DNA of 64,000 nucleotides, taken from contig JBBQZX010000025.1 in NCBI GenBank assembly GCA_038207335.1, forward strand, positions 1 to 64,000, written 5' to 3'. The notes beneath the pieces are model-generated. The model was not told the DNA's origin. It saw only the letters and a list, made by a program, of their open reading frames with translations, and ran no database searches. The stretch is from Chthoniobacterales bacterium (GTDB taxonomy: Bacteria > Verrucomicrobiota > Verrucomicrobiia > Chthoniobacterales > Chthoniobacteraceae). How positions within the stretch are numbered: position 1 is the first letter of the stretch; every line of letters begins with the position of its first letter. Shown piece after piece: positions 13,110-26,500 of the stretch. A program made the translations under genes and the position numbers.

Positions 13110-13730
13110 ATGCAATCCATAGGCTCAATCCTTTCCCGCGTTGGCGAAAAAATCTTCCCGTTCCGACTCGCCATCGGTCTGGCCATCGCGCTATTCGCGC
13201 TCGAGTGGCTGAGTCCTCGTCCGTTCTTCGCCCCGCACTATCGCCTGCTCCACGGCCTCGCGTTGCTCGTGATCGCAGGGGGGCTCGCGCTGCGGGCGTG
13301 GGCCGCCGGGCACGCCGGAGGCCACACGCGATCCGGCGAGATCGAGGCGGGGTCGCTTGCCACGGGCGGCCCATTCGGCCACGTCCGCAATCCCATCTAC
13401 GTCGGCAGCATGTGCCTCGGCTTGGGCATGTCGCTCCTCATTGGCGACCCGTGCGCCCTTCTCTTTTCGGCGATCGCCTTCACCATTCTCTACCTCGCAA
13501 TCATCCCAGCTGAGGAGCGCTTCCTCAGCATGCGTTTCGGCTCTGAATACGCCGCCTACTGCGCATCGGTCCCGCGCCTTTTCCCCAGGCTCACACGGTG
13601 GAAAAATGACCCACCAATTCGGTTCCGATGGCGCGCCGCCGCCGGCGAGTTCTGGATTTTCCTCATCCTCGTGGCGATCTACGCGGCGCTCTTGTTCGAG
13701 GAACATTTGGACGCGATCGGACTCTCGTAA
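13110..13730 (+). CDS. Isoprenylcysteine carboxyl/phospholipid methyltransferase (ICMT/PEMT) family membrane protein
   Basis: LATGGPFGHVRNPIYVG and EERFLSMRFGSEYAAYCASVPR motifs; multiple TM helices. Confidence 0.85.
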   Translation: MQSIGSILSRVGEKIFPFRLAIGLAIALFALEWLSPRPFFAPHYRLLHGLALLVIAGGLALRAWAAGHAGGHTRSGEIEAGSLATGGPFGHVRNPIYVGSMCLGLGMSLLIGDPCALLFSAIAFTILYLAIIPAEERFLSMRFGSEYAAYCASVPRLFPRLTRWKNDPPIRFRWRAAAGEFWIFLILVAIYAALLFEEHLDAIGLS

Positions 13731-13825
13731 AATGCAACCGGGGACTATTCCCGGGGGCGAAGATCGCCCCTTGTCAGACTTCTGTTCCACCCCGAACGTC
13801 CGCGCTCCATTTTCACCACGCTTTT

Positions 13826-16800
13826 ATGTCAAAAGACCGCATCGCAATCATCGGAATCGGCTGCCGCTTTCCCGGCAGCGTGAATGACACGGAATCATTT
13901 TGGAAGCTGCTGGCCGAGGGTCGCGAGGCGGTCGGTGAGATCCCCGCGGATCGCTGGAATATCGGGCGCTACTACGACCCGGAGCCGGGCGTCGCCGGAA
14001 AGTCGATCGCGAAACGAGGAGGATTTCTCGACCAGATCGACCAGTTCGATCCGCAGTTTTTCGGCATCTCGCCGCGCGAGGCGCCATTCGTAGATCCGCA
14101 GCAACGGCTCCTGCTCGAGACCGCGTGGGAGGCAATCGAGGACGCGGGAATCGTGCTCAATTTGGAAAATGGCACCGACATCGGAGTCTTCGTAGGCATT
14201 TCCCACAACGACTACCAAGCCATCCAGGGCACCGCTTACGACCACTCAGGGATCGGCGCGCACTCGCCCACCGGCAGCGCGCACTCCATCGCCGCAAACC
14301 GGATCTCTTACAGCCTGAATCTGCGCGGCCCTAGCATCGCGATGGATACCGCGTGCTCCTCCGCGCTCACCGCCGTCCATGCCGCGTGTGAGCACATCCG
14401 CTCCGGCCGAGGCGATACCGCGCTCGCCGGCGGCGTCACGGTCATCATCACGCCCGGCGGCTTTGTCGGATTTTCGCAGGCATCCATGCTCTCGCCGGAA
14501 GGCCGGTGCGCCGCGTTCGACGCATCCGCGAGCGGCTTTGTGCGGGGTGAAGGCGCGGGCATGGTTTTACTCAAGCGCCTCTCTCAGGCCATCGCGGACG
14601 GCGACCCGATCCACGGCGTCATCTGTGGCACGTCGATCAACCAGGACGGACATACGAATGGCATCTCCCTCCCGAGCCCTGAGGCGCAGGCGCGTCTCGT
14701 GCAGGATGCATGCAAGGACGCGTCTGTCGCACCGTCCGCGATCGGCTACGTCGAGGCCCACGGCACCGGCACCGCCGTCGGCGATCCCATTGAGGCCCAC
14801 GCGCTCGCCGAGGCCCTCTGCTCCGATCGCCCCGCCGACGCGCCGCTCGCGATCGGCTCGTGCAAGACGAATCTCGGCCACCTCGAAACCGCCGCCGGAG
14901 TCGCCGGCCTTTTGAAGGCCATGCTCGTTCTGAAGCATCGCCTAATTCCCGCGAGCCTGCACTTCACCGTGCCGAGCCCGCACATCGATTTCGACACGTT
15001 GAAGTTGCGTGTCGTCACAGCACTTGAGCCTTTCCCCGCGACTGCGGGCGAGCGTCTCGCGGGCGTGAACTCGTTCGGCTTCGGGGGCGCGAATGCCCAC
15101 GTCATCCTAGCCGAGCCGCCGCCCGCTGCACATCCTGCGCACAGCGACGCGCCCGTCGAGCGTGCATGGCCCATCGTCATTTCTGCGCGCTCCGAGACCG
15201 CTCTCCGCGGCGTTGCCCTCCGCCTCGCCGCGTGGCTCTCCGAGCGCGCCAATCAAAATGGCGCGTCACCGCTTCTGCCCGATCTCGCCTACACACTCGG
15301 CGCGCGGCGTAATCACCACCCGCACCGCTTCACGCTCGCCGCCCGCTCCACGGCCGAGCTCGTGCAGGAGCTCGATGCATTCGCGATCAATGAGGAGACC
15401 GTCAAAGCCCGCACCGCCTTTACGCCGCGGCCCGAGCGCGCGCCGCGCATCGCATTCATCATGAGCGGCCAGGGCCCGCAGTGGTGGGGAATGGGCCGCG
15501 AGCTGATGCGCCATGAGCCGGTCTTTCGCGGCATCATCGAGCGCTGCGACGCCGCCATGCGGCCGTGGGCGAAATTTTCACTCTTGGAAGAACTCGGTCG
15601 CTCGGAGGATCAGTCGCAAATGCACCGCACCAAGATCGCGCAGCCCGCGATTTTCGCCATACAAGTCGCCCTCGCGGAGCTCTGGAAATCGTGGGGCGTC
15701 CTGCCATCCGCAGTCGCCGGGCACAGCGTCGGCGAGATCGCGGCCGCGTGTGTCGCGGGCATTTTTTCCTTGGAGGAAGGTGCGCGCATCATCGCGCTCC
15801 GAGGGCAATTCATGGACGCGTGCGCCCGCGGCGACGGCACCATGCTCGCCGTGGGGCTCGGCGAGGAGGAAGCACGCGCGCTGATCTCGCGTCACGATCG
15901 CACCGTCACGATCGCGGCCTTCAACGGACCGCGCTCGCTCACCCTCGCCGGCCCGCGGATTTCGCTCGAGGCGATGCTCGCGGAACTCGAGCCGCAGGGG
16001 GTCTTCGCCCGCATCGTCCGCGTCGATCATCCCTTCCACCACCCGCTCATGCAGCCCGCCGCGGATCAGCTCGCAGGCGCACTTGCCGACATCGTGCCGC
16101 AGCCCGGCGACGTTCCATTTTTCTCCACCGTCACGGGCGAACGCTGTGCTGGCGAGACCTGCGGGCCCGCCCACTGGGCGCGCGGCATCCGTCAGCCCGT
16201 GCAATTCTCACCCGCGATCGACTCGCTCGCGGAGTTCGGTGTCGACGTCTGGCTCGAGATCGGCGCGCATCCCGCGCTCGTCCATTCGATCCAGGAGTGT
16301 CTCGCCGGGCGCGGCGGCGCAAAGGCTCCTGTCCTCTCCACCGCCCGCCGCGAGCGCGAGCACGACTCGACCATCGAGACTGCGCTGGACCTCCTCCGCA
16401 CGGGCGTTGCGCTCGACTTCAAATCGATGACTCCATCCCGCCGCCTCCTCGAACTGCCCGCATACGCATGGGAGCGCAGCCGCTGGTGGAATGAATCCGC
16501 CGAATGGCGCGAAGGCCGCCTCGGCCTCGGCGGCCGCGGCCTCCTCGATGTCCGCACCCCGCGCGCCGTGCCGACATGGATCGCACGCCTCGACAGCCGC
16601 CACATGGCCTTTCTCAAAGACCACAAAGTCGAGAGCCACGTCATCTTCCCCGCAGCCGGATTCCTCGAAATGGCACTCGAGGCTGGCGTCCAGCTTTTCG
16701 AGAGTCGCCCGTTCGTCGTCGAGGATTTCGAGATCCGAAAACCGCTCATCCTGCCGGACCCTGCCTCCGGCGTGCAGCTGGAGCTCAGCTACGATCCCGC

Positions 16801-25695: not shown

Positions 25696-25735
25696 GCGCA
25701 CCGCCATGCCGGGCGCGCGCGGCGAATAGACTTTC

Positions 25736-26500
25736 GTGAATACACTCCTCCGCACCGCCGCCGCCGCCCTCGTCTCTGTCGCATTCGCCAGCGCCGCCGA
25801 GCCGGAAATTTCCGCGGCTGAGCTTGCCGGCCGGCTCGCCGCAAAGCAGCAGGACGGCTCCTCGCTCATCCACTTGAAAATGGACAACTCGGGCGCGGCG
25901 GGGGGCACGCTTCAGCTTCAGATCAAGTCTCGCTCAACCCCCGGAGGCGCCGAGCTCGTCTATCAAGTCCTCTGGCCAAAGGAGCGCAAAGGCGAAGCCG
26001 TCCTCTTGCGCCGCTCCGAAAATCAGGCGGCGACCGGCGCGGTCTTCACCCCGCGCGGTGGGGTACAGGGCCTCGGCCCAAAGCGAATCGACGAACCGCT
26101 CTTCGGCAGCGCATTGTCCTACGAGGACGCGATCGAGAACTTCTTCGCGTGGGGCCAGCAGGCGATCGCCGGTATGGAAACTGTCGATCGCGTGCCGTGC
26201 CAAATCCTCGAGTCCAAACCCGGCCGCGGCGACCACTCCTACTACACCAGCGTCCGCACTTGGGTGGACACGCGCCGCATGGTCCCGCTCCGCGTGGAGA
26301 AATACGCGCGCTCCGACAAGCCCGTCCGCTGGATCGAAACCACGCGCGTCGCCAACGACGACAACGGCCGCCCCGTCGCGGCGAACATCACAGTCCACGG
26401 TCCCGGCGGTGCCACCACCGACCTCGATGGCTCAAAAATCAAGCACGGCGCAACATTCACCGATGAGGAATTCACGCCCGATGGATTGAAAAATCCGTGA
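25736..26500 (+). CDS. Outer-membrane lipoprotein-sorting (LolA-like) periplasmic protein
   Basis: Signal peptide; PKERKGEAVL, LFGSALSYED, CQILESKP, YTSVRTWVD...PLRVEKY, as in LolA-like proteins found next to MacB-type ABC genes. Confidence 0.78.
   Translation: MNTLLRTAAAALVSVAFASAAEPEISAAELAGRLAAKQQDGSSLIHLKMDNSGAAGGTLQLQIKSRSTPGGAELVYQVLWPKERKGEAVLLRRSENQAATGAVFTPRGGVQGLGPKRIDEPLFGSALSYEDAIENFFAWGQQAIAGMETVDRVPCQILESKPGRGDHSYYTSVRTWVDTRRMVPLRVEKYARSDKPVRWIETTRVANDDNGRPVAANITVHGPGGATTDLDGSKIKHGATFTDEEFTPDGLKNP

Follow-up and report, generated by a model that had tools for sequence, protein, structure and literature searches.

What is made, and where is it sent, by a bacterial locus in which a polyketide synthase (PKS) stands next to a free condensation domain, a desaturase-type enzyme, an ABC exporter, a LolA-like carrier and enzymes of amide chemistry? 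The question is raised by a 64,000-nucleotide stretch of DNA from a Chthoniobacterales bacterium (GenBank assembly GCA_038207335.1, contig JBBQZX010000025.1, positions 1 to 64,000), hereafter the window. Nine of its genes, between positions 8837 and 26500, form a real, conserved and apparently uncharacterised block, in which known enzyme types stand in a new arrangement. That the block makes and exports some acyl lipid is quite probable, and firmer than any amide cycle. The best explanation of the full gene set, a tentative one that falls somewhat short of an even chance, is a methyl-branched envelope lipid that would be amidated inside the cell, exported, and de-amidated or transacylated outside.

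Members of the Chthoniobacterales and related groups abound in soil and freshwater, and to our knowledge little is known of their envelope lipids. If the proposed reading is true, the block, which occurs in 85 of 301 sampled genomes (about a quarter), would reveal a new lipid that might serve as a biomarker. Bacteria would then offer an example of release by a free-standing condensation domain with no adenylation (A) domain, MacB/LolA-like transport would gain a further type of cargo, and the disputed lipid transfer by RMDN3/PTPIP51-type tetratricopeptide repeat (TPR) proteins could be viewed in a bacterial setting. Natural variants of the block, with or without the AsnB, amidase and TPR genes, with a swapped exporter, or reduced to an operon lacking the PKS, offer ready comparisons for lipidomics.

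Extent and inheritance of the gene block

Six of the nine genes had been named in the initial annotation of this DNA, namely those for the PKS, the condensation (C) domain, the desaturase-type enzyme, the two ABC components and the LolA-like protein, and all six were confirmed on the forward strand with their Pfam domains. The gaps between them, from the PKS through the LolA-like gene, are 11, -4, at least 36, 1 and 40 nt. The left limit had been drawn too short: genes for an AsnB-type amidotransferase, a TPR protein and an amidase were missed, and the block reaches left to 8837. The claim that the cluster has no thioesterase (TE), A domain or AMP ligase holds for the 16 open reading frames (ORFs) scanned with Pfam, from 2141 to 32207. 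No characterised match had been recognised, and none was found in the PDB, in NCBIfam or in a literature search that had most subscription journals and supplements outside its reach. The block also fails a defining test of each known system with which it was compared.

Inheritance was followed in an even sample of 301 genomes of the order, each at least 80% complete and the source genome (G000) included; genomes, contigs and loci are cited below by our own handles. Orthologues of the C domain were found in 85 of these genomes, of AsnB in 63, of the LolA-like gene in 76 and of the amidase in 66. The C domain and the LolA-like gene occur together in 72 genomes, the former alone in 13 (six of them with f1, a secreted protein described below) and the latter alone in four. 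The proposed co-inheritance of the export module with the PKS cluster is therefore sustained by a LolA-like gene in 72 of the 85 C-bearing genomes against four of the 216 without the C domain, although it is not universal. The C domain and AsnB coincide in 61 genomes, and 60 of the 66 genomes with the amidase carry AsnB; of the 85 genomes with the C domain, AsnB and amidase are both present in 58 and both absent from 22, and five are discordant.

A second set of loci came from scanning species genomes for the desaturase: 259 relatives were found, and the best 80 were kept; where labelled to phylum, all of these are Verrucomicrobiota. The locus counts include only loci with enough flanking sequence, which were chosen by similarity and in part repeat genomes of the 301. 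The C domain lies upstream of the desaturase in 70 of 71 loci, the PKS accompanies it in 67 of 70, and a divergent AsnB gene stands beside the PKS in 44 of 53. Downstream of the desaturase, 41 of 59 loci have the ABC ATPase, permease and LolA-like genes, 11 have only f1, four are mixed and three have none of these. In a phylum-wide sample, none of 300 other genomes gave a match at E 1e-60, and metagenome-assembled genomes of Luteolibacter and Prosthecobacter carry the block. It is thus frequent in one order, with a patchy occurrence elsewhere, and not phylum-wide; patchiness is seen even inside one genus.

The polyketide synthase

The gene at 13826..21472 (forward strand) encodes a single-module type I PKS with KS, AT, DH, cMT, ER, KR and ACP domains in one ORF and an acidic, docking-like helix at its C-terminus DLDALSDEDLDLLL. 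Its start had been placed at 13628, which is wrong: homologues align from MSKDRIA, and the ATG at 13826 yields a protein of 2548 aa. The annotated single KS-AT-DH-cMT-ER-KR-ACP module with recognisable motifs was borne out by Pfam and by a motif check, in which DTACSS, EAHGTGT, NLGHLE, GHSVGE, HPFHH, DHKVESHVIFP, HPVLFD, LEVGAGTGG, HAGAGGVG, GAFGGFG, YGAAN and GLDSL were found; every catalytic motif is conserved across homologues (64-80 homologues per motif). The cMT retains the Tyr, the S-adenosylmethionine (SAM) motif and the His, and has Asp in 74 of 82 sequences and Glu in seven at the position of the CurJ Glu, and it is likely active. The HPFH-type motif of the AT, by the usual rule, presumably denotes a malonyl extender. 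These features support a C-methylating, fully reducing PKS whose chain would be off-loaded by the free C domain. The synthase would work iteratively or else extend a fatty acyl chain just once. The source genome (94.7% complete) holds two PPTase-family genes elsewhere, one of which, from what is known of the family, would activate the PKS.

The domain order had suggested a kinship with fungal iterative highly reducing PKSs (HR-PKSs), and the order and intact sites are indeed like those of the TwmB and LovB type. Unlike in the LovB type, the KS and cMT are nearer to cyanobacterial CurL and CurJ: the KS scores 470 bits with CurL, which is nearest among single-KS entries, 450 with PikA, 419 with Mas and 336 with LovB, and the cMT scores 182 bits with CurJ versus 114 with LovB. 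Because of these two affinities, the synthase is assigned by sequence to the bacterial cis-AT type and is CurL/CurJ-like. The fungal framing also fails in that a bacterial PKS of the WcbR type has the same domain order, and a fungal origin is ruled out by the KS and cMT bit scores, on scores only. This bacterial WcbR/RkpA-type PKS, on a Caballeronia plasmid (L121), is also similar in size (2541 aa) and shares 40% and 35% identity over two segments. Its methyltransferase is degenerate, unlike the intact cMT here, and none of its partners (an LTA-synthase-family gene, an SDR, a PLP enzyme and polysaccharide export) recurs in 100 loci of the present type.

In a plasmid search there was no close match to the block, with KS matches of at most 55%. 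Besides the present synthase, the source genome has a single type I PKS module (37%), in a separate region of nonribosomal peptide synthetase (NRPS) and PKS genes on contig C1 (~28000-39500), which a PPTase-family gene adjoins (C1:29510-29728). The PKS and C genes look frameshifted in G033:C1 (L107) and G032:C5 (L116, L117), by sequencing error or decay, and L033 holds partial duplicates of the PKS end, C start, desaturase and f1 that may be an assembly artefact.

Probable chain release by the condensation domain

Directly downstream, the gene at 21484..22815 (forward strand) encodes the annotated stand-alone C domain with HHAIADG (PF00668, E 2e-62), which begins with a basic helix, DDKRARLKQWL. 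Residues H151, H152, D156, G157, R6, W12 and L13 are invariant in 48 of 48 homologues. The structure model (pLDDT 86) has the C-domain fold, with a TM score of about 0.8 to NRPS C domains. In sequence, too, NRPS C domains are closest (Txo2, E 5e-44), and several stretches, for example the lost LPxDxPRP, set the protein apart from Txo2 and DhbF. The domain is a separate ORF in the window and in 47 aligned loci; fused forms elsewhere were not searched for.

The acidic C-terminal helix of the PKS and the basic N-terminal helix of the C domain are both conserved across homologues, and complex modelling weakly suggests that this tail and head mediate docking. The complex of ACP plus tail with the C domain scored 0.58, compared with 0.00 for the best of three controls; at least 75% of contacts agree between runs, and the partner pLDDT is at least 68. 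The mark applied to such models is reached by 116 of 157 solved pairs and two of 215 mismatched pairs, and among pairs at the mark with scores of 0.60 or less there are only 18 solved ones but both mismatched ones.

The available part of a report on TwmB, the fungal PKS-C enzyme of the wortmanamides, describes a C domain that releases chains onto free omega-amino acids with no A domain (PMC11153888). Release by a C domain without an A domain would be common to both systems, whereas the present C domain has its own gene and a docking-like head, and a desaturase, AsnB, an amidase and Lol-like export are added.

The layout of the mycobacterial phthiocerol dimycocerosate (PDIM) locus comprises the Mas PKS, the condensation-fold transferase PapA5, DrrABC and the LolA-fold protein LppX. 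The initial annotation had drawn this analogy, which stands for the ABC exporter and LolA-fold carrier (72 of 85 carriers), as it does for a single reducing PKS module and a condensation-fold transferase. It does not extend to the methylmalonyl AT without cMT, since a malonyl-type AT (HPFH) and an intact cMT are found here, nor to the fatty acyl-AMP ligase, which is absent from the 16 scanned ORFs and from the recurring neighbour families. The NRPS-type C domain, the MacB-type pump and the amide enzymes are further differences. A PDIM-like ester lipid would nevertheless arise if a PapA5-like C domain esterified the chain onto a membrane lipid, glycolipid or lipid A, with AsnB and amidase as accessories. 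Mas is the best full-length PDB match of the PKS, and SgcC5, which we take to form esters, is among the fold matches of the C-domain model. Clusters without AsnB retain the PKS, C, desaturase, ABC and LolA-like genes intact, and in different genomes a cardiolipin synthase, a GH1 or an LmtA-like gene occupies the slot upstream of the PKS. The occupants of this slot, however, vary between genomes, the C domain is nearest to an NRPS domain, with no PapA5 entry among its 53 sequence matches, and 58 of the 85 carriers retain AsnB and amidase, at about 65-78% and 51-66% identity, respectively. An ester of this kind is therefore considered unlikely.

On a quick tree, ten of 12 C domains from AsnB-less genomes, drawn from three families, form one clade (support 100), and the other two lie apart. 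Six C domains of one AsnB-less genus have G161T/S, N287G and C46R/G at otherwise nearly invariant sites, which may reflect an altered acceptor or only drift. In genus g38, loci L125-L134 and L144 are AsnB-less clusters whose C domain has G161T and N287G. Genes near AsnB-less loci include those for GH1, a cardiolipin-synthase-like PLD, a lipoprotein alpha/beta hydrolase, a chalcone-isomerase-like protein and patatin; in G369, a cardiolipin synthase gene lies between AsnB and the PKS.

Enzymes of amide chemistry

The presence of AsnB, amidase and TPR genes beside the PKS indicates amide chemistry. AsnB (11000..12934, reverse strand), divergent from the PKS, is of the glutamine- and ATP-dependent type, with the N-terminal Cys, SGGxDS (SGGVDS) and GEGxDE motifs and a TIGR01536 score above the cut-off. 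Cys2 is present in 49 of 49 homologues. According to the part of a preprint that was available, the N-terminal Cys of AsnB-type enzymes distinguishes amine transfer (FdmV) from ligation (PdmN) (bioRxiv 10.1101/2025.10.30.685158). The best PDB match is the hydroxyamidotransferase 7ylz, ahead of Escherichia coli AsnB, and TsnB9 scores 174 bits versus 150 for the E. coli enzyme. The cluster AsnBs form one clade (100) inside a clade of 20 rows (99) on a quick tree. In the 301-genome sample, five AsnB-less genomes searched at a loose cut-off yielded distant paralogues only, or no match.

Sister-clade members L167, L168 and L177, together with the partial L197, which is off the tree, precede a DevC-like permease. 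L177 and L197 hold HpnD-like genes, L197 also HpnE, and the other sister-clade members have unrelated neighbours. These sister loci (L177:8427-17715, L197:1-6371, L167, L168) line up an SDR, AsnB, the DevC-like permease, an ABC gene, an adaptor and HpnD/HpnE, an arrangement that may point to a hopanoid- or squalene-derived lipid being amidated and exported.

The amidase gene (8837..10180, forward strand) encodes an amidase-signature hydrolase (PF01425, E 5e-59) with its K, GGSS and GTDTGGS motifs and a lipoprotein signal (LVG-C), and the enzyme is predicted to face the periplasm. The lipobox is kept in six of the seven homologue N-termini inspected. In six genomes (G520, G561, G463, G420, G602 and G474), the amidase gene lies beside the LolA-like gene at the export end. 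The adjoining gene (10192..10956, forward strand) encodes a secreted TPR protein of the RMDN3/PTPIP51 type (PF21033, 38.8 bits, above the cut-off), a candidate lipid-handling partner; residues 35-222 align with PDB 7cc7 (E 6.5e-11), and the RMDN3/PTPIP51 TPR is matched along its length. A close orthologue of this protein was found in 38 of 39 genomes with AsnB and amidase, in two of 22 lacking both and in none of 19 without the cluster. This comparison used 80 hand-chosen genomes and a cut of E <1e-70 set after the scores were known, and distant paralogues are widespread.

The co-inheritance of a cytoplasmic amide-forming enzyme with an exported amide-cleaving one could also mean that AsnB acts first. 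It would then supply asparagine or a malonamyl starter, leading to an N-acyl-asparagine or omega-amido masked precursor that the exported amidase unmasks, in the manner of colibactin-type prodrug chemistry. The best plasmid match of AsnB (38%) lies in a Sinorhizobium meliloti operon of asnB, a small ORF, an AMP-ligase and an NAD-synthase, which might be taken to favour this order of events. The S. meliloti enzyme, however, belongs to a different clade, on which ground AsnB as an ACP-acting malonamyl starter enzyme, suggested by that likeness, was rejected. The cluster also has no A domain, free ACP or AMP ligase, the source genome has two further AsnB paralogues, and TsnB9 outscores E. coli AsnB, which together make this scheme quite improbable.

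Predicted oxidation and export

The gene at 22812..23774 (forward strand) encodes a membrane His-box di-iron enzyme (FA_desaturase, PF00487, E 3e-31) with three hydrophobic segments and His boxes conserved in 91-92 homologues. It could desaturate or hydroxylate; a weak match to the GntB hydroxylase (39 bits versus a cut-off of 380) was found, and a plasmid search gave no match. Next follow a LolD/MacB-type ABC ATPase (23811..24578, forward strand; ABC_tran, PF00005), whose start codon is uncertain, and a MacB/LolC-type permease (24580..25695, forward strand) with MacB_PCD (PF12704) and FtsX (PF02687) domains, in which four hydrophobic segments correspond to four transmembrane helices with a periplasmic domain. 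The last gene encodes a LolA-like periplasmic carrier with an apparent signal peptide (25736..26500, forward strand; LolA_like, PF17131, E 5e-17).

The trio does not match the standard LolCDE/LolA lipoprotein pathway: both equivalog cut-offs are missed (TIGR02211 for LolD, 246 bits versus 308; TIGR02212 for LolC/E, 46 versus 362), and the gene set is absent from most relatives. No membrane fusion protein (MFP) or TolC family recurs among the analysed loci, which fits a hand-over to the periplasmic carrier. Aryl polyene lipids, in the available part of the source, are polyketide-derived envelope lipids with their own Lol-like carrier ApeL and an RND protein, ApeM (PMC8253772). A dedicated LolA-like carrier for a polyketide-derived envelope lipid, which is predicted here, would be shared with them. 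Their clusters, by contrast, use a type II PKS, acyltransferases and an RND pump, and the gene table in that part of the source lists neither a C domain nor amide enzymes.

In some loci the ABC, permease and LolA-like genes are replaced by f1, a beta-rich secreted protein some 245 aa long (at L040:11028-11831 and in 14 other loci), which occurs in 15 of the 301 genomes, all of one family. It has no Pfam match, its structure model (pLDDT 41) is too poor to use, and the sole lead from the Atlas is a weak one to DUF3108, seen in 11% of one cluster. In L129, a genuine DUF3108 gene is situated upstream of the PKS. A PKS-less run of amidase, TPR, desaturase and f1 genes occurs in L147 (G049:C11), L148 (G605:C40) and L067, and L149 has amidase and TPR only. 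In G049 (100% complete) and G605 nothing matches the PKS, the cMT, the C domain or AsnB, so the desaturase and amidase can persist without the synthase.

These operons are among the observations that would suit a diffusible product. In that case, the C domain would free the chain as an acid or with ammonia, giving a primary fatty amide, by the logic of sorbamide or oleamide, that serves as a signal, surfactant or inhibitor; the amidase would recycle or detoxify it, and the PKS-less operons in G049, G605 and L067 would mark non-producers that take it up. A precedent is given by the fungal SoaABC system for sorbic acid and sorbamide, in which, by the part of the report available, an HR-PKS is combined with the AsnB-type SoaC, which amidates the polyketide acid (PMC13284220). 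The pairing of a reducing PKS with an AsnB-type amidotransferase is shared. In the same part of that source, SoaA differs in that no cMT is listed and release is by a hydrolase, and the SoaABC gene list contains no exporter, periplasmic carrier or exported amidase. Further points in favour are a distribution that is patchy even in one genus and the lack, among the genes recurring in the loci, of any for an acceptor, an A domain or a head-group enzyme. Hydrolytic C domains do exist; the invariant HHxxxDG, however, suits condensation, and a dedicated ABC exporter with a LolA-like carrier suits a membrane-bound lipid better. A diffusible amide thus appears rather unlikely.

Proposed pathway

For the amidated envelope lipid, what is directly observed is the gene content, the intact active sites, the co-inheritance and the export signals on the amidase, TPR and LolA-like proteins. 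From family knowledge, the PKS would use malonyl units and SAM to build a reduced, methyl-branched fatty chain, which the docked free C domain likely transfers to a small, free acceptor. AsnB, with glutamine as the nitrogen donor, as its family would predict, likely converts a free carboxylate of the lipid to a primary amide. The membrane di-iron enzyme would oxidise the chain at a step whose place in the order is conjectural. The lipid is then predicted to pass from the MacB-type ABC pump to the LolA-like carrier and across the periplasm, presumably to the outer membrane. Once it is beyond the inner membrane, its amide would be removed or transferred by the lipoprotein amidase, acting with the TPR protein. 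In favour of the amide steps, the amidase is retained even when relocated beside the LolA-like gene. AsnB relatives beside DevC-like permeases and lipid-type genes near variant loci also appear to speak for the pathway as a whole.

Several points weigh against this pathway. Its product is predicted, and the case is built from sequence, models and analogy. AsnB and amidase are both lacking in 22 of the 85 C-bearing genomes, which makes the amide step dispensable in some lineages; several of these 22 are fragmented assemblies. Because ten of 12 AsnB-less C domains form one clade, the co-loss of the two genes would rest on few events, perhaps two or three, and it may be a single deletion of adjacent genes. 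The LolA-like gene is missing from 13 of the 85. The PKS-less operons of amidase, TPR and desaturase, which would be either scavenging systems or deletion remnants, are not predicted by the pathway. Since GatA (108 bits) and FAAH (106 bits) are about equally near, the substrate of the amidase is unreadable from its sequence. As for docking, likeness to solved complexes of C domains with peptidyl carrier proteins (PCPs) may account for the complex-model score. Finally, the lipid-transfer role proposed for the RMDN3/PTPIP51 TPR is disputed, according to the part of the source available (PMC10243591).

A bolder form of the amidated-lipid pathway, which we regard as doubtful, is a cycle of capping inside and uncapping outside that would yield a new class of methyl-branched amide lipid in the Gram-negative envelope. 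The trans-docked C domain and AsnB would produce a neutral amide, the MacB/LolA-like route would export it, and the lipoprotein amidase with the RMDN3-like TPR lipid carrier would convert the lipid in the periplasm. Related soil Verrucomicrobia that lack the PKS would keep the amidase, TPR and desaturase genes and harvest the lipid from neighbours.

Neighbouring genes and other observations

The gene at 13110..13730 (forward strand), for a PEMT/ICMT-like membrane methyltransferase (PF04191, E 6e-13), falls within the coordinates that the initial annotation gave for the cluster. A PEMT-like gene is present in none of 80 related loci, which puts it outside the conserved block and rules it out as a core member; it is probably a local insertion, found between AsnB and the PKS only in this genome. 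It weakly matches LmtA, a lipid A phosphate methyltransferase (56 bits versus a cut-off of 325).

A promoter and terminator scan gave no promoters and 23 terminator-like sites, compared with 18.1 +/- 4.6 in shuffles, a result that carries no information on the locus. Three long ORFs on the reverse strand, at 2141-6823, 35607-38399 and 57985-60519 (1560, 930 and 844 aa), have no Pfam match, and the first has a partial paralogue on contig C2 of the source genome. A 329-aa protein, whose function is unassigned by family, adjoins the cluster in five loci (e.g. L072:13659-14648), and a 65% identical copy is encoded elsewhere in the source genome (C30:11503-12396).

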